Source: a virus (lineage: Duplodnaviria; Heunggongvirae; Uroviricota; Caudoviricetes). From it: a stretch of 64,000 nt of DNA. The translations under genes and the position numbers were made by a program. The notes under the pieces were generated by a model, which saw nothing but the letters and a program-made list of their open reading frames with translations, did no database searches and had not been told where the DNA came from. The stretch spans positions 204,837 to 268,836 of the IMG/VR virus record IMGVR_UViG_3300037424_001372; one strand, written 5' to 3'. Numbering within the stretch: position 1 is the first letter of the stretch; each line of letters opens with the position of its first letter. Below are positions 22,265-52,978 of the stretch, piece after piece.

Positions 22265-22495
22265 ATGTCAGAATTAAGTTGTGAACCACAAGGCTATAAA
22301 AAGCCAGTAATGTCAATCGGTGACGAATTTGTTGTATGGGCAGAACAATATTGGAGAATAGATGAATTATTTGACAATACTGTTAAAGACCCTGCTGAAA
22401 AGGGTGACGAAAAATGCCCATATAGTGCAGTAAAACCAATCTTCATAAAAAAAATAAATGATTTAATTGAAGAAAGAGTTCGACATTATATGTAG
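22265..22495 (+). CDS. hypothetical protein
   Basis: 76-aa ORF. Confidence 0.4.
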   Translation: MSELSCEPQGYKKPVMSIGDEFVVWAEQYWRIDELFDNTVKDPAEKGDEKCPYSAVKPIFIKKINDLIEERVRHYM

Positions 22496-22612
22496 GATGT
22501 TTCTTGCATTACGCCTAACGTTGAGCGTATGTGTAGTGCAACCTTACACATACTTTCAATTTACAACTAACTTATTGGTTGCATTACATATTCGCATTGT
22601 TATAGTGCGTTA

Positions 22613-24260: not shown

Positions 24261-24342
24261 GTATGGCATTTGTAATATGAATTAAAATTAGTGTAACAAA
24301 TTTTGAAATTAAACGTATAGATAAATAGAAAGCACAGTAAAT

Positions 24343-24648
24343 TTGAATCTTAAAATTATGACATTAGAAGAATTAAAACAAACAGATTGGTATAATGAAC
24401 GTCCAGAAATAATTCAACAGGCAATTTGCAAACTACCACCAACACGACTTTATAAGTTTAAAGATAGTGGTAAACAATGTCAAATTTGTTCATTTGAAGA
24501 ACCTGAAAGCGGTAAACTAGAAGACGTTACATGCAGTGTTCGAAAAACTGGGATTGGAGGGGCTATGGCAGATATGGGATTGGATTCATTAAACACAAAC
24601 AATGTATTTGATGTTAAATTAGATGACTTGGAACCGTGGGTTGATTAG
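24343..24648 (+). CDS. hypothetical protein
   Basis: 101-aa ORF. Confidence 0.4.
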   Translation: MNLKIMTLEELKQTDWYNERPEIIQQAICKLPPTRLYKFKDSGKQCQICSFEEPESGKLEDVTCSVRKTGIGGAMADMGLDSLNTNNVFDVKLDDLEPWVD

Positions 24649-29418: not shown

Positions 29419-29596
29419 AAAAAACAATTATTTTAATGTTTATGACTGCGATTTTAGCAGTTTCTTGTACTCGAATTGATGCTGGTTATGAAGGATGGAA
29501 CAGATAAAGGCGTACAAGATGCTACTATGGTAACTGGTAGAGTTTGGTACAACCGTTCAAAAAATCCTACTAAATCTTACCAGATTCAATATTGAT
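29415..29596 (+). pseudogene. SPFH/band-7 lipoprotein gene, 5' fragment interrupted by IS element B1
   Basis: MKKTIILMFMTAILAVSCTRIDAGYEGWNR* then, after a frameshift, DGTDKGVQDATMVTGRVWYN..., ending exactly at the IS boundary. Confidence 0.4.
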
Positions 29597-30925
29597 TTTA
29601 TTTCCTAATTCAACGAGTGTGTAATCACTACTCTCCAAAGGCGTTAATTCCCCACAACGGATGGGTACTAATTTCTTTATCATACAATAATCATCTACTT
29701 TTATTTCAGATTTATTATATAATTTTAATCCTTCATTTCTAATATTAATCGCTGCATTTAAATCTCTATCATGGACTTCTCCACAATCAGGACATGTCCA
29801 TATTCTATCTTTAAGACTAAGATTATCATTTTTATATCCACAACAATTACATAATTTACTGCTTGGAAACCATCTATCAATTTGAACTAAATCTCTTCCA
29901 TACCAAATACTTTTATATTTTAACATGGTTTTGAATTTATTTAAACTTAGTTCCTGAATACTTTTAGCTAAATTATGATTTTTCATCATTCCCCTTACAT
30001 TTAAGTTTTCCATTACCATAACTTGATTTTCGTTAAGTAATTGATTAGAAACATTATGTAGATAATTCTCTTTAATGTTGTTTAATTTTTCATGAAATAA
30101 AGCTAACTTAATTCTACACTTTTCTTTGTTTTTACTTCCAATAACTTTTCTTGACAATGATTTATTTAATCCTCTTATTTTTTTCTTATTATTTCTTTTA
30201 ATCTTAATATTTTCAAATATTTCACCTTCTGATGTTATTACAAAATCTTTAACACCTAAATCAATTCCTATAATATTATCTGTTTCAGGCAATATTTTAT
30301 CAATTGGTAAATCAATAAGAATTGATAGAAAATATTTATCTGATTTAGTTTTAGTTAAAGTACCTGACTTAATATTATCTTTAAACGTAGATAAATAATT
30401 ATGATATTTATTAGAACATTTAAACTTAACTTTCTTTAAATCAGAAGTTAATGTTATTTTATAATCAGAATATATATTTTTCTTTGATATTGCATCTAAA
30501 GGAAATCTACAACTTTGATTATTATCATGTTTTGACTTAAATTTAGGAAACCCATTTCTGTCAACAAAAAAACGTTTATAACTATCAAGTAAATTAATAA
30601 CACTTTGTTTCAATACCTTAGTATTGTGTTCTTGCAACCATTTATAATCGGGATTTTTGGTCAATTCTTGATGAAAGAAGTTACCTAATTCTTTCAAGCC
30701 TAAATTAACCTTATCATTTGCATAACTTTTCATTTTTTTATCAAGGCATTGATTATAAACAAAACGATAACTTCCAAGAAGTTTAGAAATATAATCTTCT
30801 TGAGTTTTGTTTGGATACAATCTTATTTTTACTGCCTTAATCATTGAATTAATTATTTTCTTCTGATTTCTTTTTCTTATTTTGATGACTTCTTCTTCCG
30901 TATAATTTACTACTAAAACTTGCAA
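29570..30925 (-). CDS. tnpB: TnpB/OrfB RuvC-like nuclease with Zn ribbon, B-type copy 1
   Basis: CNCCGYKND...CPDCGEVHDRDLNAAINIRNEGL. About 60% identical to 35292..36512. Confidence 0.9.
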   Translation of the reverse strand: MQVLVVNYTEEEVIKIRKRNQKKIINSMIKAVKIRLYPNKTQEDYISKLLGSYRFVYNQCLDKKMKSYANDKVNLGLKELGNFFHQELTKNPDYKWLQEHNTKVLKQSVINLLDSYKRFFVDRNGFPKFKSKHDNNQSCRFPLDAISKKNIYSDYKITLTSDLKKVKFKCSNKYHNYLSTFKDNIKSGTLTKTKSDKYFLSILIDLPIDKILPETDNIIGIDLGVKDFVITSEGEIFENIKIKRNNKKKIRGLNKSLSRKVIGSKNKEKCRIKLALFHEKLNNIKENYLHNVSNQLLNENQVMVMENLNVRGMMKNHNLAKSIQELSLNKFKTMLKYKSIWYGRDLVQIDRWFPSSKLCNCCGYKNDNLSLKDRIWTCPDCGEVHDRDLNAAINIRNEGLKLYNKSEIKVDDYCMIKKLVPIRCGELTPLESSDYTLVELGNKINIESGKI

Positions 30926-31463
30926 TTAATGTCATCATATCGTTAACAAATTCATCACTATCAGAAATATTATTGTTTTCAATTCGTTCAATTTCAACCC
31001 CATAACTATTGAAAAAAGCATTAATTAGGTTATACTGAAATCTTGTTAATCTATCTTTATTTTCAATAACAACTTTAAATATTTTTTTATCGATAACTAA
31101 TTTAATTAAATTAACAAATCCACTTCTTGTATCAGATAAACCACTACCAGTATCTTTTATCTGATAATGAACACTATATTTCTTTTTAGCACAGTATTCG
31201 CTTAAACGTTGTGATTGTCTATCTAAATCACCCTTTTGTTTTTGATCATATGAACTAACACGAGAATATGTTGCAACGGCATCAATAATAATTTCTTTTT
31301 TATATTCTCCAATATAATTCAAAATATCTTCTTCTCGATAACGTCTATGACCACCAATTGTTTTAATTGATTTTAGTTTATCTTCTACATCCCAATTTCG
31401 TAGTGAATGTTTAGACACTCCAAGTATTTCAGATGCCTTATTTAATGATATTAGTTTACTCAT
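30849..31463 (-). CDS. tnpA: IS607-family serine recombinase TnpA (MerR-like HTH plus resolvase catalytic domain)
   Basis: N-terminal HTH (ASEILGVSKHSLRNW), resolvase core (YSRVSSYDQ...DRQ) and 77-nt overlap with tnpB. Confidence 0.85.
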   Translation of the reverse strand: MSKLISLNKASEILGVSKHSLRNWDVEDKLKSIKTIGGHRRYREEDILNYIGEYKKEIIIDAVATYSRVSSYDQKQKGDLDRQSQRLSEYCAKKKYSVHYQIKDTGSGLSDTRSGFVNLIKLVIDKKIFKVVIENKDRLTRFQYNLINAFFNSYGVEIERIENNNISDSDEFVNDMMTLIASFSSKLYGRRSHQNKKKKSEENN

Positions 31464-35053: not shown

Positions 35054-35278
35054 ATGAAACTAAAAATTGGCAATAGTTGTGGATCATGTGTTCACACTAA
35101 TAAACCTAAAACGCCTCGTGAACATGCTGCTTATTATGAAGTAGCTAAAACCGAACGTTGGTGTTTTAAACATAATTGTCATGTTACTCGTGAAACTACT
35201 TGTGATGACCATGAAGGTATTAATCGAAGTGCTAAAACCTCTTTTCCAAGAATAGAAAAATTCAATAGCAGAGCATAA
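35054..35278 (+). CDS. hypothetical Cys/His-rich protein
   Basis: 74-aa ORF with CGSC and CDDHEG motifs. Confidence 0.35.
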   Translation: MKLKIGNSCGSCVHTNKPKTPREHAAYYEVAKTERWCFKHNCHVTRETTCDDHEGINRSAKTSFPRIEKFNSRA

Positions 35279-35291
35279 AAATCAATAGGAA

Positions 35292-36512
35292 TTAAATCCT
35301 ATTTTCTTTTCTTCCTATTTCACCGACACTTGTCTCCATAGGCGTTAATTCCCCGATACTATCAGGTATTTTATTGTTTATTATTCTTAAACCTTCATTC
35401 TTGATATTTATTGCTGCATTATAATCCCTATCTATTGACATATCACATTTAGGACATTTAAATGTCCTTTCACTCAGTGTCAAATCATTGTTCTTATAAC
35501 CACAACAACTACACAATTTACTGGAAGGATAAAACCTGTCTATTTCCACCAAATCCCTACCATACCAAATTGATTTATATGTCAATATATTCTTAAACCT
35601 ATTTAGTGATAGTTCCTGTATTGATCTGGCTAGTTTATGATTTTTCAACATACCTTTTACATTCAAATCCTCAATCACTATAACTTGGTTTTCGTTAAGC
35701 AATTGATTTGATATGGAATGTAAATAATTCTCTTTTTTATTATTTAATTTCTCATGATATTTAGCTAATTTTATTCTTGCCTTGTTCTTATTATTTGATT
35801 TATTTTGTTTTCTTGATAATGATCTTTGTAATTTACTTAATTTCTTCTGGTTATTCCTTTTAATTTTGATATTCTCAAATACTTTATTATCGGAAGTCAC
35901 AATAAATTCTTTAATGCCCAAATCTAAACCAACAACATTGTTGGTTAATGGTAGGATTTTAGCTATTGAATCTGGTAGATCGATTAAAATCGATAAGTAA
36001 TAATAACCAGATTTAGATTTAGTTAATGTTGCTGATTTAATATTATCTTTATATTCTGACAGATAATTAACATATTTCTTTGATGTTTTGAATTTAATAT
36101 CTTTAATTTGAGTGGTCAACGTTAATTTATTATCTATGAATATATTTTTCTTTGATATTGCTTGTAAAGGGAACCTACACGATTGTTTATTATCATGCTT
36201 AGATTTATATTTGGGAAAGCCATTGCCGTTAACAAAAAATCTTTTGTATGTATCGAGGACATTAATAATTGTTTGGTTCAGGACTTTGGTATTGTGTTCG
36301 TTAAGGAACGAATATTCATCATTTTTCAATAGGCCGTGGAAAAGAAAGTTACCAAGAATTTTGAGGTTAGCGGATTTTTTTGTACATTTGTAATGTTCTA
36401 TTGAAAAATTAAGTGCTTGGTTATACGTAAATCTATATGAACCAAGGAGTTTATTCATATAAATTTCTTGATTTTTATTAGGGTATAATTTAAGTTTTAA
36501 ACCTTTAAGCAT
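35292..36512 (-). CDS. tnpB: TnpB/OrfB RuvC-like nuclease with Zn ribbon, B-type copy 2 (solo, no tnpA)
   Basis: CSCCGYKNN...CPKCDMSIDRDYNAAINIKNEGL. No recombinase gene adjacent. Confidence 0.85.
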   Translation of the reverse strand: MLKGLKLKLYPNKNQEIYMNKLLGSYRFTYNQALNFSIEHYKCTKKSANLKILGNFLFHGLLKNDEYSFLNEHNTKVLNQTIINVLDTYKRFFVNGNGFPKYKSKHDNKQSCRFPLQAISKKNIFIDNKLTLTTQIKDIKFKTSKKYVNYLSEYKDNIKSATLTKSKSGYYYLSILIDLPDSIAKILPLTNNVVGLDLGIKEFIVTSDNKVFENIKIKRNNQKKLSKLQRSLSRKQNKSNNKNKARIKLAKYHEKLNNKKENYLHSISNQLLNENQVIVIEDLNVKGMLKNHKLARSIQELSLNRFKNILTYKSIWYGRDLVEIDRFYPSSKLCSCCGYKNNDLTLSERTFKCPKCDMSIDRDYNAAINIKNEGLRIINNKIPDSIGELTPMETSVGEIGRKENRI

Positions 36513-36540
36513 AATTATGTCTTTAATAGACGATTTATAT
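35310..36540 (-). mobile_element. IS1341-like solo tnpB element B2
   Basis: Shares the right-end block TTCCTATTTCACCGA...GGCGTTAATTCCCC with B1. Confidence 0.5.
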
Positions 36541-36839
36541 ATAAATACTCAATAAATAATGAAATGATAGATTTTTTAATGTTTTAATTAAAAATATTTA
36601 TAAGACAAAAAGAAGTACTTGAGATTATTGAATTGATGGGCGATAAAAAGGTTATATTGAATAATGAAATATATTTTGTTAAAAATGGTTAGATATGTTA
36701 TAGTTATGACGAAGATTATAGTTATGATGAAGATGATTATCTTAGATTTAATATTTTTAAATTAAGTACCAAAAATAGATCATGTGATTATTATTTAAAA
36801 GAAATTCGAAATGCTTTGCAATGAGAAGTCATAAATACT

Positions 36840-37121
36840 ATGTTAGGAATATGTACTTTAATTCAATATAATATGAAACTAGATGATGAAGTAATAATAT
36901 TATTATTTAAAAATAATGAAGGTGAAACTACTGTAATAACTTTAACAATAGATCAACTTTTAGATAAAACAAGAGATGATTTATACGAAATGTTAGATAA
37001 TTCTGAACCTTGCACATGCTCAAGCTGCAATAACGAAAGCCAAAACTTTTGTGATTGCGGCTCTAAATATGAAGATTATGAAATTGTTGAGGTACAGGTT
37101 TCTTGTTATAACAATATCTAA
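36840..37121 (+). CDS. hypothetical Cys-rich protein
   Basis: 93-aa ORF. Its stop codon abuts the mini-IS remnant. Confidence 0.4.
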   Translation: MLGICTLIQYNMKLDDEVIILLFKNNEGETTVITLTIDQLLDKTRDDLYEMLDNSEPCTCSSCNNESQNFCDCGSKYEDYEIVEVQVSCYNNI

Positions 37122-37345
37122 ATACACAGAAAAACCATGAAATTGGTTTACGATTTTAATAATCGATGGGATCGCTGATAATCCCCCCTATCCCATCTGT
37201 GAAAACATTTGGGATTGCTTTTCTTAAAATTAAAAAATAGTAAATTACATTAAAATAATTTACTATTTTTTAATACAGTCTGTAATCAACATGTTAAAAT
37301 ATCGCAATTGTTCAACGAAACCCACATAAAATTATGTAAGTCCCG
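37114..37345 (-). mobile_element. miniature (MITE-like) derivative of A-type IS607: right end fused to left end, no ORFs
   Basis: 37114..37230 matches 44129..44250 (tnpB 3'/right end with GGGAT...ATCCC hairpin). 37250..37345 matches 46070..46120 (left end TTTACTATTTTTAATACAGTSTGTAAT). Confidence 0.6.
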
Positions 37346-37440
37346 ATTTCCTAATTCAACGAGCGCGTAACCACTAACTCTCCAAAGGCTTTAATTCCCC
37401 ACAACGGATGGGTATTTGTTTTAATAGAGTATTTTATATA
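37346..37440 (-). mobile_element. B-type IS right-end remnant, directly abutting the mini-A element
   Basis: TTCCTAATTCAACGAGCGCGTAACCACTAACTCTCCAAAGGCTTTAATTCCCCACAACGGATGGGTA is about 90% identical to 29602..29668. Confidence 0.6.
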
Positions 37441-37591
37441 CTAATTATAAATAGTATGAAATGAAAAAAATGTTATATTTAAAAATAATTTTAACAATAT
37501 ATTTCATTAATTTTGTCTATTTCTCTATAAACTGCCAATAAACCCTGCTCCGCCGGTCACTATAATCATAGCCTGATGCCTTGTAGTATTT

Positions 37592-43808: not shown

Positions 43809-44153
43809 TTAAATTAATGACGATCTAATTATTTCAATTAATTGTTTTAATTGGTTTAAGTCATTAAATTTCACTTCTTCTCTTTCAAAAAATTCAACAG
43901 TATATCCCTCACCATTTTTTCTTTCATCATTGGAGTTTGAAATTAATAAACATTTTCCACCGACAACAAAAGAATAATAATGGAATCCATTTTCTTCAGG
44001 TTCAATTGAAGCATGTTCAATTTCCTTTTTAAAACCCAATTTAATTAAATCGTTGCCTTTAATTTGATTATTTTTCATATCTTTGTCAATAAAATCAATA
44101 ATATATTGAGTGACGGTAGTATGATTTATTTCAGCAACAGTATCTAAAAACAC
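43809..44153 (-). CDS. hypothetical protein (annotated N-terminus derives from IS right-end sequence; the true start is probably an internal ATG)
   Basis: The GTG start and codons LDTV are encoded by the conserved GTATCTAAAAACACAG IS-end block. Confidence 0.35.
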   Translation of the reverse strand: MFLDTVAEINHTTVTQYIIDFIDKDMKNNQIKGNDLIKLGFKKEIEHASIEPEENGFHYYSFVVGGKCLLISNSNDERKNGEGYTVEFFEREEVKFNDLNQLKQLIEIIRSSLI

Positions 44154-44168
44154 AGAAAATCCATGAAA

Positions 44169-45437
44169 TTAGTTTACGATTTTAATAATCGATGGGATTA
44201 CTGATAATCCCTCTATCCCATCTGTGAAAACATTTGGGACTGCTTTTCTTAATATATTATAACTTCCGTTCACATCGGCATTAATTACCTTATCTTCTCC
44301 CTTAATCTTATATAATCCCCTACATTTACGGTAGTCAGAGAACGAAGGTTCTTCGTTTATCTTTCCGTAAATAGGGATGTTATCCATATTAAGAAATGAT
44401 GCTTTAGAGGTATAACTTTCCTCCTGAAGTATAATATTTATTCCAGCTTTTTCGCATTTATAAACAAGCATGTTTATAAATCTACTATGTGGAATGTTAA
44501 CGAAGTTCTGATTTGAGTTTTTACTCATATCTGTGGATTGTTTCCAACCATCGTTCTTACCGATTATCATGGTGTTTGTTTGTCTTTCTTTTGCAATATC
44601 TATAACCAACTTACTTGCTTTATGCAAATAATCATCAACCTTGCGGTTGCGTTTATTCGTCATTCTGCGAGTTCGATTGCTATGTTTCTCTTTATTTCTT
44701 TTTTCTAATATAGAATTATAATGTGCAATTTTTTTATTATAAAACTGATTCATGGATTTTAATGGTCTACCATTAATAATCATAGATTTAATTTCATTAA
44801 CATTGCTAGTTATTGTTGCTAAATTATTCACGCCTAAATCTAAACTCAAATAACGATTATTGTTTTGTAATTTAGATACGTCAGGTATTTGATAAACAAT
44901 CTCTATAACATAGTGATCTAATCGTGGAACGATTCTGACAATAAGTATATTTTCTTTTTTAGTTGTTAATTGTATATTAGTTTTAGATAATGCTAAAATA
45001 CCTTTTTTAAGAAATTTTTTAGAAATGGCACCTTTTTCATAAATGACAATGAATCTACCATCTTTTTTATCTAAATAAGAAGGTAATTTAGGAATGCCTT
45101 TATATTTAGCCGGATTTTTCTTATAATCTCTAATAGAAGCGAAAAACGATTTCCAATTTCTATCCAAAACCATTAAGGTTTGGTTTGAAACCTTAAGTGG
45201 AAGTTGATACATATCGAATTGTTTATCATCTACAAGAAGCCTATTAATATCATTATAATTAAGATAATTAGCAAAGGAACGAGTTCCTTCTTGTTTTTCT
45301 TTTGATGTTTGAATAAATTCTTGTCTAATAATATGATTGGCGTAATTATATAGATTTTTAGATTTAAAACACACGCTATCACATTCAGCGTACAATGCTG
45401 AATTTTTATTGATGATATGTTTTTCTACTAATCTCAT
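44169..45437 (-). CDS. tnpB: TnpB/OrfB RuvC-like nuclease, A-type copy 2
   Basis: 422 aa, homologous to 160..1377, with ADVNGSYNILRKA tail and no Zn-ribbon cysteines. Confidence 0.85.
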   Translation of the reverse strand: MRLVEKHIINKNSALYAECDSVCFKSKNLYNYANHIIRQEFIQTSKEKQEGTRSFANYLNYNDINRLLVDDKQFDMYQLPLKVSNQTLMVLDRNWKSFFASIRDYKKNPAKYKGIPKLPSYLDKKDGRFIVIYEKGAISKKFLKKGILALSKTNIQLTTKKENILIVRIVPRLDHYVIEIVYQIPDVSKLQNNNRYLSLDLGVNNLATITSNVNEIKSMIINGRPLKSMNQFYNKKIAHYNSILEKRNKEKHSNRTRRMTNKRNRKVDDYLHKASKLVIDIAKERQTNTMIIGKNDGWKQSTDMSKNSNQNFVNIPHSRFINMLVYKCEKAGINIILQEESYTSKASFLNMDNIPIYGKINEEPSFSDYRKCRGLYKIKGEDKVINADVNGSYNILRKAVPNVFTDGIEGLSVIPSIIKIVN

Positions 45438-45439
45438 AT

Positions 45440-46006
45440 TTATTTTTCTAAAAATTTAATTATTTCTTCTTTGTTTTTCTTTTTTCTTAAACCATACATT
45501 CTTGCAGAAAATGAATATATGATAGAAATTAAATCTTGCATTAAATCGGTCTTATCATCATCAACTCTATTGACTACTAAAATTTTTTTATTATTTAAAG
45601 TAAGTAGTTTTTCAATATAATTAAACCCGAAACGGGTTAGTCTGTCTTTATTTTCAACGATTAACGCATCCCAATCATTTTGTTGTAAAAGTTTAATAAG
45701 TTTAGGTCTATGGTCGTTAAGACCGGAACCGATTTCTTTAATGTTGTAAATAATATCATAACCATTATTAATACAATAATTAACCATTCTTTCTGATTGT
45801 CTATCTAAGTTATCTTTTCTATCGGAATTAGATACTCTGGAATAAATAGCTGCTTTTTTACCATTATCAAATTCTGGGACTTTAATACAAACATGTCCAG
45901 TTTTATCAATAAAACAATTATCTATTTTTCCTGCCTTATATCTATTCCACGCTGTTCTATATGTGACATTAAATTTTTTAGCGTAGTCTGATAATTTATA
46001 ATACAT
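45440..46006 (-). CDS. tnpA: IS607-family serine recombinase TnpA (MerR-like HTH plus resolvase domain)
   Basis: YSRVSNSDRKDNLDRQ catalytic core with N-terminal HTH. Stop lies 2 nt before the tnpB start. Confidence 0.85.
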   Translation of the reverse strand: MYYKLSDYAKKFNVTYRTAWNRYKAGKIDNCFIDKTGHVCIKVPEFDNGKKAAIYSRVSNSDRKDNLDRQSERMVNYCINNGYDIIYNIKEIGSGLNDHRPKLIKLLQQNDWDALIVENKDRLTRFGFNYIEKLLTLNNKKILVVNRVDDDKTDLMQDLISIIYSFSARMYGLRKKKNKEEIIKFLEK

Positions 46007-46106
46007 TATTTTTATTATTTTAATATAAATAGTTTTTATTTTAAAAAAAGATGTGAAAATTTTAAATTATTTTACTATAATTTACTATTTTTAATACAGT
46101 GTGTAA

Positions 46107-46262
46107 TTAACATAAGTCCATTTCATGTGAGTCAAATCCCCAAGAAATGTTAGGGACTATAATGTTTTGCCTTATGCCGAAATGTTTAGCAATAACCACT
46201 TCAATTTCTGCTGTGGTGATTGGTTTTGGTTTATTTCTATTTCTATTTCCCTTAATGCCCAT
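46107..46262 (-). pseudogene. PD-(D/E)xK nuclease-like gene fragment truncated by insertion of IS A2
   Basis: MGIKGNRNRNKPKPITTAEIEVVIAKHFGIRQNIIVPNISWGFDSHEMD then runs straight into the IS left end. Confidence 0.4.
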
Positions 46263-49506: not shown

Positions 49507-49528
49507 TTTATTCAAATTTACTTTGACA

Positions 49529-49590
49529 GTATCTAAAGACAAAATTAGATTACGATTTTAATAATTGATGGGATTGCTTTTTTTTAAGCG
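49529..49590 (-). mobile_element. degenerate A-type IS right-end remnant with internal deletions
   Basis: GTATCTAAAGACAAAATTAGATTACGATTTTAATAATTGATGGGATTGCTTTT aligns to 44129..44250 with two gaps. Confidence 0.55.
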
Positions 49591-49650
49591 ATGTTTTTTT
49601 TTTAATTATAAGAAAAATTTAAATTATTTTATTATAATTTATTAGTTTTA

Positions 49651-51808: not shown

Positions 51809-52978
51809 CTATACATTTTCATTTGAAAATCCAAATCCTTTATCTGAATAAACTGGTAATACATCAGATATGTCACAATATTCACCAAATTCTTCATAAC
51901 TTACATTAGCAACACTATCTCCAATTGTAACTGGAATTTTTTCAGGAACTTGATCTAGGCATGTTACTACCAAATGTTTGTTATTAAACAAGTCAGGATT
52001 GTCAAACCTATCACAATTAATAGCATATTTTAGCATATCCAAATCCATCATTGCTTTTCTGAATTCACCTTGAAATCCCAATACATTGGTTTCTAAAGGA
52101 TTTTCTTTAATAAAAGATATATCCATACTTTCATTGCTCAAGAACCCATTACCATGACGAGTTTGATATGCTCTTGTGATGTAATATGTATTAATATTGG
52201 AAATAACACCTTTCAAATTATACTTATCAATGAGTTCGATAGCGTTTTTTGCTACGGTGTTACTTCGAGTAACGTGTGGAAAAAAACCATAATCTTTATC
52301 CAACATAATACCTTGACTACCCTCAAAAATAATGTTATTAAAACCCTTAACAACACTAAAATCATCAACAATTTGATATTTTTTCACCAAATCATCACAA
52401 GCAGTGATAAATTTATGATAAAGTTCATCAGTAATTTTATATTTTGCTTCAAATGGGTTTTTTGGATTGTATGCATGTTGATAATAACTGTTGATTATTA
52501 ATCTTAATTTTTCATTTCTAATTTTAGGATATAACAAATCTCTTGCAAACAAACGAAAATGGTCTTCGTTTCGTTGAATTGTAGTACCAAATCCTACACC
52601 AACACTACCATGTTTAGTAGTATCATCCAATATTCTATTTTTTAGAATATCAAATGGAGTGGTTATCATAGCATTTGAATTAATGAACAATTGAGGTTCA
52701 AAACCAGTAATCCTTAAAATATCGCCCTCACGTTGAATACCAACAGGGTCTAATGTGCAATATTCAGACCAATAAGTTGGAGCATTTTGAAGTGTTCCTG
52801 AACCAAAATTTGAAAATATGTGTCTAGTATCGTCAACAACAACAGTATGTCCGATTTGGTGACCACCACTGAATCTAACTACCAATGGATTGTCTCGTGT
52901 TGAACATAAATAATTGACAAATGAACCCTTACCCTCATCACCGTATAATGCACCGAGTATTATAAAAGCATTTCCCAT
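51809..52978 (-). CDS. adenylosuccinate synthetase (PurA)-family protein, short divergent form (PurZ-like candidate)
   Basis: GDEGKGS P-loop, GGHQIGHT and FEGSQG motifs. 389 aa. The Arg-rich TTGRRRR loop is replaced by GFQGEFRK. Confidence 0.7.
   Translation of the reverse strand: MGNAFIILGALYGDEGKGSFVNYLCSTRDNPLVVRFSGGHQIGHTVVVDDTRHIFSNFGSGTLQNAPTYWSEYCTLDPVGIQREGDILRITGFEPQLFINSNAMITTPFDILKNRILDDTTKHGSVGVGFGTTIQRNEDHFRLFARDLLYPKIRNEKLRLIINSYYQHAYNPKNPFEAKYKITDELYHKFITACDDLVKKYQIVDDFSVVKGFNNIIFEGSQGIMLDKDYGFFPHVTRSNTVAKNAIELIDKYNLKGVISNINTYYITRAYQTRHGNGFLSNESMDISFIKENPLETNVLGFQGEFRKAMMDLDMLKYAINCDRFDNPDLFNNKHLVVTCLDQVPEKIPVTIGDSVANVSYEEFGEYCDISDVLPVYSDKGFGFSNENV

Follow-up and report, generated by a model that had tools for sequence, protein, structure and literature searches.

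Two tandem protein-less derivatives of TnpB-carrying IS607-type elements with omegaRNA-like modules in a huge phage genome

In a 64,000-nt stretch of a Caudoviricetes genome (IMG/VR record IMGVR_UViG_3300037424_001372, positions 204,837 to 268,836; hereafter the window), the minus strand between positions 37111 and 37494 carries pieces of two kinds of IS607-type insertion sequence (IS), here called A-type and B-type. The locus raises the question of what is left of each element once its genes are gone, and whether the right ends, which would encode omegaRNA guides for TnpB nucleases, could still serve intact copies elsewhere in the genome. On the evidence of identity and anatomy, we are highly confident that the locus holds, in tandem and on one strand, deletion derivatives of two different TnpB-carrying IS607-type elements, both of them protein-less. 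Each has lost its gene or genes through an internal deletion and has kept its whole right-end RNA module, and the A-type derivative (hereafter A-mini) has kept both transposon termini as well. Use of the relic RNAs in trans is plausible by analogy with characterized systems; that at least one of them is still made and used we consider possible but rather doubtful, and we judge the explanation as a whole, with anatomy and use weighed together, to be evenly poised. The features of the locus, all on the minus strand, are as follows.

37087..37110, minus: would-be guide flank of the A-mini omegaRNA (UAUAACAAGAAACCUG...), directly 3' of the ...ACUGU terminus conserved in all A-type copies
37111..37227, minus: A-type right-end module, an omegaRNA-like scaffold of 117 nt with four hairpins, ending ...UUUAGAUAUUGU
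37228..37233, minus: deletion joint between left end and right end, from which about 1.8 kb with tnpA and tnpB is gone by alignment with the full A-type copies A2 and L007
37234..37291, minus: A-type left end, 58 nt, with outer terminus TGTTGATTACAGACTGTATT followed by an AT-rich palindrome
37292..37306, minus: 15-nt spacer UGCGAUAUUUUAACA, between the end of the B-type covariance models R2 and R3 (37307) and the A-type left-end boundary (37291)
37307..37416, minus: B-type right-end module, complete at 110 nt and omegaRNA-like, built around a RAGATH-18-like core and ending GAACAAU where the family has GAACGGU
37417..37494, minus: inner (promoter-proximal) B-type left end, with a conserved TATTTATAAT box at 37444-37453, abutting the RNA module

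Anatomy of the two relics

A-mini is 181 bp long (minus strand, 37291..37111), with a 58-nt left end, a 6-nt joint and a 117-nt right end, and is an open reading frame (ORF)-less deletion derivative of an A-type IS607 element in which the right end has been joined to the left end. In blastn searches within the window, run with no low-complexity filter, positions 37110-37230 match 44136-44255 of the intact A-type element A2 at 91.7% over 121 nt (E = 1e-44), and positions 37234-37292 match 46056-46113 at 84.7% over 59 nt (E = 5e-12). An initial annotation of this DNA had already recognized the A2 right-end match, including its GGGAT..ATCCC hairpin, at a lower identity of about 85%. Independent boundaries are supplied by L007, a full A-type IS607 element from another metagenome, in an unrelated context, whose TnpB is 89% identical. 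The similarity between A2 and L007 ends at window position 46112 on the left and at 44136/7 on the right, and that of A-mini to both ends at the matching bases, 37291 on the left and 37110/1 on the right, with the left-end similarity beginning at the same base in all three contexts. The earlier proposal of a miniature derivative with both A2 ends and neither tnpA nor tnpB is upheld by these outer boundaries, which match full copies in two independent contexts, and no ORF of at least 25 aa with TnpA or TnpB similarity was found within 37111-37291.

The ends of A-mini are recognizable down to small changes. Its right end finishes ...TTTAGATATTGT on the minus strand, the tip carrying a C to T change (GATATTGT in place of GATACTGT), and in the left end an inverted copy takes the place of the second ATAGTAAA direct repeat. 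A near-perfect AT-rich palindrome of 46 nt (37229-37274) matches itself at 91.3%. Being short and ORF-less and keeping both parental ends, A-mini has the properties of a miniature element, and to that extent the analogy with miniature inverted-repeat transposable elements (MITEs) that had been drawn for it is apt; the A-type ends, however, are not inverted repeats of each other, the sole inverted repeat being internal to the left end, and since terminal inverted repeats are foreign to IS607 elements, 'MITE' fits only loosely. TGT, not GG, occupies both junctions in A2, A-mini, L007 and a further A-type copy, L012, and is seen, for the right-end junction alone, in L008 and L010. With a slash outside brackets marking the boundary and bracketed bases being alternatives, the junction pattern is TGT(T/A)(A/G)ATT... 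at the left end and ...ACTGT/T at the right end, as in L007 (2325/4302). The canonical IS607 core dinucleotide is GG (PMC6188088), and the TGT suggests a different crossover or target motif for the A-type TnpA clade. No target-site duplication is visible at A-type or B-type junctions. With these boundaries, excision of A-mini would give the donor joint ...ATATTTTAACATGT/TATAACAAGAAACC and the circle junction ...TAGATATTGT/TGATTACAGAC.

The second relic is a complete 110-nt omegaRNA-like module fused to an inner left end, with tnpB deleted between them. When compared against window copies alone, only 69 nt of it look B-like (in the same blastn search, 37346-37414 against 29600-29667, 92.8%, E = 7e-23). 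Close relatives of the resident B-type element B1 are absent from IMG/VR by protein search and were obtained instead from a scan of JGI contigs, in which foreign B-type right ends open with a hairpin, followed by the RAGATH-18-like core GGGGAATTAACGCCTTTGGAGAG...CTCGATGAATTAGGAAAT, the variable hairpin and the terminus TTGAACGGT; all four parts are found in 37416..37307. These relatives redraw the map that the initial annotation had given. Its second-family piece at 37346..37440 does adjoin A-mini, but it is a full-length 110-nt module where a small remnant had been supposed, and 37415-37440 belong to the B-type promoter-proximal left end. The segment 29602..29668, taken there for the end of a B-type element, is not a terminus: the reading frame of the B1 tnpB covers 29600-29667, with the stop codon 30-98 nt further on, and the terminus is at 29552. 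Likewise, the A2 left-end match drawn at 37250..37345 holds as the similarity 37234-37292 but does not continue past 37291, and what had been called a 37-nt insertion in it vanishes, since 37307-37345 supply the B-type module with its 3' hairpin and its terminus. With this module, that of L074 (a 148-kb viral contig) shares 83% identity, that of B1 75% and that of the resident solo tnpB copy B2 59%, values that point to descent from a third B lineage.

The remainder of the B relic, 37417-37494, resembles the region upstream of the B2 tnpB (36522-36603; 72.6%, E = 5e-5) and that upstream of tnpB in L031 (74.7%, E = 2e-5), and its TATTTATAAT box lies about 25 nt upstream of the B module. Because this leader directly abuts the RNA module, the deletion must have taken out tnpB and joined the promoter-proximal leader to the module; no tnpB codons are left upstream of the last ~30, which overlap the RNA. 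There is no TnpA or TnpB coding capacity within 37111-37494 as a whole, and the relics are derivatives, not autonomous IS607 members. The outer left-end motif of the B relic was undetected with an nhmmer profile of six foreign B-type left ends. An outer start suggested by a MAFFT alignment, GGG/TTTATTGGCAGT, is a doubtful candidate: it went undetected by the profile, and its bases encode an in-frame GAGFIGS Rossmann motif. At the right-end tip, the terminal GG has become AA (GAACAAT in DNA), GG being the bases at which IS607 transposases recombine (PMC6188088; 10.1101/2023.11.20.567912); the B-type relatives fit a GG core, with (T)GGG/TT at the left end and GAACGG/T at the right end. With its outer left end undetected and its right-end tip mutated, the B relic does not qualify as a miniature element. 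The outer left-end profile also matches, weakly, the reverse complement of right-end tips (E about 0.3; 29550-29579 and 37305-37339, plus strand), from which the B-type ends may share a short imperfect inverted repeat, AAC.GTT.AAAAA.

The two relics stand head-to-tail on the same (minus) strand, 15 nt apart, an arrangement in tandem and not the nested one first described. The spacer UGCGAUAUUUUAACA flanks A-mini on the left and would also form the beginning of the B guide. Low-complexity AT-rich sequence had been named as what could undo these alignments, and the pairwise comparisons refute it: none of 1000 dinucleotide-preserving shuffles reaches the local-alignment scores of the A right end or the A left end, nor those of the outermost 26 nt of that left end by themselves, a stretch that is not AT-only, or of the B-type left-end match 37417-37494.

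Predicted RNA modules and the resident elements

The structure of the modules was assessed with covariance models, of which R3 was built from eight foreign sequences only and R1 and R2 include window sequences; their E-values are rough. The A-type right end is predicted to form four hairpins, the GGGAT..ATCCC hairpin being stem 2. Over eight members of the A-type family, 93% of the cells in the 29 pairs of this fold are paired, and 11 of the pairs have compensatory double changes, a result reached by 0/500 shuffles, while slid controls are 24-46% paired. A-mini keeps 27 of the 29 consensus pairs and scores 118.3 bits with R1 over the full length, its own sequence being in the R1 training set. 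In the B-type family, 27 pairs have 94% of cells paired and 15 double changes (0/500 shuffles). The B relic scores 123.4 bits with R2 and 115.8 bits with R3 (E = 9e-24, model positions 1-110), all 27 pairs being canonical; since B1 and B2 reach 97.5 and 52.6 bits with R3, its module is by this model structurally more canonical than those of the two intact copies. In every full copy, A-type or B-type, the module reaches up to the element terminus, and the modules have 34-41% G+C against a background of 26%. Both therefore show the structural hallmark of an omegaRNA, a covarying conserved fold at the 3' end of tnpB and the right end, and the original reading of the right ends as omegaRNA scaffolds is borne out to the extent that they are structured, covarying and omegaRNA-like. 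Rfam RAGATH-18 (RF03064) falls short of its gathering score of 44.9 both at 37348-37388, with 24.7 bits, and at 29602-29641, with 27.0, and across the whole window none of the Rfam families attains its threshold. As to the 5' limit of the A-type RNA, the conservation of synonymous sites in tnpB (A2 against L007 and L001) gave no clear signal.

A 22-nt stretch of the B-type RNA core, GGGGAATTAACGCCTNTGGAGA, occurs exactly in 28 contigs of Methanosarcinales, Methanoperedens and anaerobic methanotrophic archaea (ANME) metagenome-assembled genomes (MAGs) and in one cyanobacterial MAG. It is preceded by a full-length TnpB (about 30% identical) where the upstream contig suffices, several matches lying at contig ends. 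Such nucleotide conservation across domains is striking.

The possible partners of the relics are the four TnpB-encoding copies resident in the window, two of each type.

160-1377, plus: A1, an A-type tnpB whose tnpA is cut off by the window start
44137..46112, minus: A2, an intact A-type IS607 element (TnpA 45440-46006, TnpB 44169-45437)
29552..31463, minus: B1, a B-type IS607 element (TnpA 30849-31463, TnpB 29570-30925, RNA module 29552-29669)
35268..36603, minus: B2, a solo B-type tnpB (tnpB 35292-36512, RNA module 35268-35370) with a left-end-like region upstream

The boundaries of A2 were set by comparison with L007; for B1, 31463 is the tnpA edge, with the left-end boundary lying beyond it. 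B2 has no tnpA. As the initial annotation had stated, there are four TnpB proteins, all four ORFs scoring above the NCBIfam guided_TnpB cut-off, and both TnpA proteins exceed that of the IS607 family transposase (NF033518, cut-off 110), with 159.5 bits for A2 and 178.6 bits for B1. Pfam Resolvase is found in both TnpA proteins and the MerR helix-turn-helix (HTH) additionally in B1; the parents A2 and B1 are IS607-family elements with a serine-recombinase TnpA. The A2 TnpB scores 161.5 bits with guided_TnpB, its D200, E339/340 and D388 are invariant in the family alignment, and its RNA module scores 131.9 bits with R1 at 44137-44252. A-type TnpBs are 405-422 aa long with no N-terminal HTH match, whereas B-type TnpBs are ISDra2-like and 406-451 aa long. 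The B2 TnpB matches the ISDra2 TnpB structure 8EXA (E = 2e-51) as well as 8IAZ (E = 2e-43) and has the DLG, EDL and DRD motifs. For A-type TnpB, sequence search gave no relative of solved structure, and the alignment shows no obvious CxxC zinc ribbon; its relatives, at most 46% identical, are in Lak megaphage, Bacillus phage G, and Staphylococcus and Nodularia phages. TnpB genes were already known from huge phages.

The further suggestion that the relic RNAs could be used by all four TnpBs is too broad, because the A module is close to A2 only (91.7%, against about 76% for A1) and the B module is as distant from B1 and B2 as stated above. A2 is the likely source in trans of both TnpA and TnpB for A-mini.

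Surroundings of the relics and searches for further copies

The parent of the window is the 324,744-bp JGI metagenome contig P0001, a phage genome of about 325 kb, and the G+C content of the window is 26%. The window codes for an amidase endolysin, HNH and LAGLIDADG homing endonucleases and a PurZ-like synthetase, it has PHROG matches, and rIIB lies just outside its end, which together identify it as a piece of a huge phage genome. A giant eukaryotic virus carrying Fanzor was considered as the source and dropped on account of the endolysin amidase, the PHROG matches and the nearby rIIB. Logan contigs of SRR12684511 are 100% identical to the window; they break within the 3' end of the A2 tnpB (44196-44488), beside the repeat shared with A-mini (44136-44255). 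The synthetase is a 389-aa homologue of adenylosuccinate synthetase (51809-52978, minus strand; Pfam 1e-41), with the PurZ-type synthetase family as its top PHROG match (7e-48), and the phage may replace adenine with 2-aminoadenine. In L013, a 128-kb contig, an A-type solo tnpB has a tRNA-like sequence immediately upstream (about 1800-1900).

Three features bear on the history of the locus.

36840..37121, plus: a conserved small phage gene of 93 aa with the motif CNNESQNFCDCG, whose frame now takes in 11-12 nt of the A-type right end before reaching its stop
37525..37569, minus: a 14-codon stump of a short-chain dehydrogenase/reductase (SDR) epimerase/dehydratase, MIIVTGGAGFIGSL followed by a stop codon, bordering the B relic
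49526..49650, minus: a second, degraded A-type ORF-less copy, with a right-end part (49526-49586) and an inner left-end part (49612-49650)

The 93-aa gene overlaps at its 3' end the would-be guide flank at 37087..37110. Its closest homologues end ...YEIVEVLVS at 76 aa, against ...EVQVSCYNNI in the window, and DNA homology with its nearest relative, L078 (82%), runs only as far as the stop codon, at 37104, with TGT in the window opposite the TAG of L078; a further 6 nt lie between this point and the right-end boundary. Behind the stop codon of that gene in L078 (1359-1383), and likewise behind that of another small gene in the window (22504-22520, gene 22266-22496), there is a G+C-rich motif, TTGCATTACGCCTAACG. 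It may represent a conserved signal of 3' intergenic DNA, displaced by the relic cluster at 37104. The SDR stump corresponds to positions 1-12 of Pfam Epimerase (E = 0.43, too short for significance). It is unusually G+C-rich for this genome and stops where the B relic starts, and its bases align loosely with the left-end start of the B-type relatives.

The second A-type copy scores 29.9 bits with R1 (E = 4e-4); 49542-49578 matches 44166-44202 at 92%, and 49612-49650 matches 46055-46093 at 90%. It keeps only hairpin 3 and the terminus, hairpins 1, 2 and 4 being gone (1 and 2 by deletion between two AATCCCA repeats), and lacks the outer ~20 nt of the left end. Its right-end part begins at the same position as that of A-mini, but the left-end-side junctions differ, and a common mobile ancestor of the two is therefore no more than a possibility. 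The 16 nt following its eroded right end at 49525 have a 15/16 match at 24333-24348 (plus strand), with no TGT upstream and a rough expectation of about 0.03. A B-type module of 90.9 bits preceded only by TnpB residues 280-394 is found in a 173-kb IMG/VR contig (L076, 3046-3448, and L072), and represents an intermediate stage of the same decay series.

We searched for siblings with the same junction by exact and degenerate pattern scans of IMG/VR and JGI metagenome contigs and found none, a weak negative, as these collections hold neither the parent nor the L007 contig. The one IMG/VR pattern match (L016) was rejected because it lies inside an unrelated 709-aa ORF, and BLAST against GenBank phages gave no DNA match. 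The A-type count of one intact mini-element and one eroded copy refers to 64 kb of a 325-kb genome. No empty site emerged among the Logan contigs carrying window genes, which are the same phage at 100% identity, among the IMG/VR loci with homologues of the 93-aa gene, which share no neighbouring genes, or in L078, which ends 39 nt past the gene; the neighbouring 77-aa gene has no relatives in IMG/VR. The predicted guides have no second match or trans target within the window. A sigma-70 pattern scan gave 7 promoter-like sites against 5.0 +/- 2.4 in shuffles, and a terminator pattern scan found none, the palindrome stem being A/T only.

Use, decay or mobility

How such relics could persist is suggested by cut-and-copy homing, which has been shown for IS605 and IS607 TnpB, where the omegaRNA runs into the flank and guides TnpB to the unoccupied site, whose repair then draws on an occupied copy (PMC8612924, PMC10055086, 10.1101/2023.11.20.567912), and IS607 TnpB also promotes element retention through donor-joint cutting (10.1101/2023.11.20.567912). 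We propose that the relics may live as dependants of intact IS607 copies. Transcription of the B module would come from the B-type promoter region, possibly reading on into the A module, and the RNAs would run on into the flanks and be bound by TnpB as inferred from ISDra2, ISXfa1, CboIStron and ISFba1 (PMC8612924, PMC10711439, 10.1101/2023.11.20.567912, PMC11061315), so that the 3' flanking 16-20 nt (UGCGAUAUUUUAACA... and UAUAACAAGAAACCUG...) would act as guides. Cognate TnpB would load these RNAs in trans, from A2 for A-mini and, less certainly, from B1 or B2 for the B relic; the complex would then cut an unoccupied allele in a co-infecting or sister genome, and recombinational repair would copy the relics in. 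A-mini might in addition be excised and moved by the A2 TnpA, which for the B relic is improbable. In favour of this proposal, the window holds four TnpB and two TnpA proteins, the catalytic motifs of the partner TnpBs are intact, and the B module keeps all its pairs although its DNA-recombination signals have decayed. Several observations weigh against it. Neither an empty site nor a sibling copy with the same junction nor a window target was found, and promoter-like sites are not in excess. The AT-rich palindrome and a T-run between the modules could terminate read-through. A-mini differs from A2 by about 10 substitutions in 117 nt, 4 of them in paired positions and 2 pair-breaking, which fits neutral decay; the intact pairing of the B module could date from before the deletion, and recognition of that module by B1 or B2 is uncertain at the identities found. 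The extended A-type alignment predicts an extra 5-bp long-range helix, itself showing no covariation, whose 5' strand is missing in A-mini, and the ISXfa1 right-end RNA (reRNA) is ~150 nt long (PMC10711439), against the 117 nt kept in A-mini.

The most serious competitor is that the locus is an inert graveyard of decaying deletion remnants in a plastic, insertion-prone stretch, with no usable RNA and no mobility, the modules being preserved because they are recent; we give this reading a chance not far below even. It agrees with the decay all around (the SDR stump, the replaced stop codon of the 93-aa gene, the eroded copy at 49526-49650), with the mutated B terminus and unrecognizable outer left end, with an A-mini substitution pattern indistinguishable from neutral, and with the lack of promoter excess and of siblings in public collections. 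Yet it has to accommodate two full-length modules with 27/27 and 27/29 pairs when the copy at 49526-49650 shows how decay looks, a B relic whose RNA part is intact and whose transposition signals are not, and a conserved promoter box still directly upstream of the B module. If A-mini were instead an active MITE-like transposon that the A2 TnpA excises and re-inserts, with 49526-49650 as an older transposed sibling, the retention of both termini to the base would be explained, as would two ORF-less A-type copies in 64 kb with right-end parts starting at the same position; the 58-nt left end spans the ~20-60 bp zone in which the IS1535 TnpA binds its repeats (PMC6188088), and an engineered IS607 mini-IS is excised in trans (10.1101/2023.11.20.567912). 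This seems unlikely to us, as the differing left-end-side junctions do not clearly make the two copies one family, the second ATAGTAAA repeat is replaced by an inverted copy, the right-end tip is altered, and no empty site or further copy turned up in the 64 kb covered.

The palindrome and T-runs could have been exapted as a bidirectional terminator between the convergent gene 36840-37121 (plus) and the minus-strand genes, with the RNA modules as passengers: the palindrome dominates the predicted fold of A-mini (z = -5.3), is more perfect than in A2 or L007 and lies ~110 nt past the stop codon of the plus-strand gene. We hold this improbable, given an A/T-only stem, a terminator scan that found none, and the preservation of modules of 117 and 110 nt that it would leave unexplained. 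Still less credible is the nested insertion originally envisaged, an A-type element, its left end enlarged by 37 nt, inside a B-type right end of which a short scrap survives. The proximity of the two homologies and the 69 nt of B-type similarity in window-only BLAST would fit it, but foreign relatives show the B module reaching 37307 with a normal terminus motif, the A left end lies 15 nt beyond, and nothing B-like resumes on the far side of A-mini. Chance matching of AT-rich low-complexity sequence, conceivable in a genome of 26% G+C where weak AT-rich matches to many places occur, has a negligible probability in the face of unfiltered E-values of 1e-44 to 5e-12, the shuffle results, and covariance scores above 110 bits.

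ORF-less carriers of omegaRNA are already established as a concept, through natural elements in IS200/IS605 and an engineered mini-IS in IS607. The former are the palindrome-associated transposable elements (PATEs) of Geobacillus stearothermophilus (Meers et al.), which often encode omegaRNAs needing TnpB in trans (PMC10055086). Like PATEs, the relics are short and ORF-less, carry transposon ends and an omegaRNA gene, and would rely on the TnpA and TnpB of other copies; unlike them, they are of the serine-recombinase IS607 type with no palindromic ends, where PATEs belong to the Y1-transposase, single-strand, hairpin-ended IS200/IS605 elements, and they sit in a phage genome in one copy each plus one eroded copy, with a mobility suggested by analogy, where PATEs form a multi-copy family. 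The engineered CboIStron mini-IS has neither tnpA nor tnpB; TnpA_S acting in trans excises it, and a TnpB provided in trans gives its omegaRNA full activity (Zedaveinyte et al., 10.1101/2023.11.20.567912). A-mini has the same composition, a left end and a right end with the omegaRNA; it is, however, natural and has TGT at both junctions, whereas the CboIStron construct is laboratory-made and has a group I intron, GG core ends and a TGGG target. For the B module, the nearest parallel is the RAGATH-18-type reRNAs, which guide IS607 TnpBs such as ISFba1 (PMC11061315; Rfam RF03064): it has the CCU.UGGAG...CG.UGAA..AGGAA core, its family sits at the 3' end of ISDra2/ISFba1-like tnpB, and the B-type relatives carry a G-rich motif (TGGG) at the left flank, as those systems do. 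It differs from RAGATH-18 members in scoring under the Rfam threshold (24.7 against 44.9 bits) and, at 37307-37416, in having no tnpB upstream. Progressive gene loss also links the relics to the solo-tnpB (IS1341-type) and truncated tnpB remnants common in IS605 and IS607 elements, from which the B relic is set apart by the completeness of its deletion. Our literature searches on IS607 with MITEs or non-autonomous derivatives turned up no account of a natural ORF-less IS607 derivative with an omegaRNA.

If the RNAs are unused, the locus would be an ordinary IS decay series, and would still show that comparison within the window alone under-calls a relic. In either case, it offers two compact, covariation-supported scaffolds of 117 and 110 nt together with candidate cognate nucleases, one of them from a clade that, judged by sequence, lacks structurally solved relatives. 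With the RNAs in use, the locus would be a natural, phage-borne case in the IS607 family of guide RNA genes split from nuclease genes, a step assumed in models of TnpB modularity towards CRISPR-Cas12-like arrangements, and of TnpB-driven homing acting on non-coding passengers in phage co-infection. A bolder version, which we regard as a long shot, is that the relics are the smallest possible RNA-guided selfish elements, guide-only genes of ~110-180 bp that have given up transposase and nuclease alike, persist in a phage population as hyperparasites of the TnpB of intact copies and spread by TnpB-triggered homing in co-infection. Were that so, the B relic, its recombination signals gone but its RNA flawless and its promoter retained, would be a guide gene kept purely by selection on its RNA, and two unrelated guide genes in tandem behind one promoter would make a primitive array-like arrangement.

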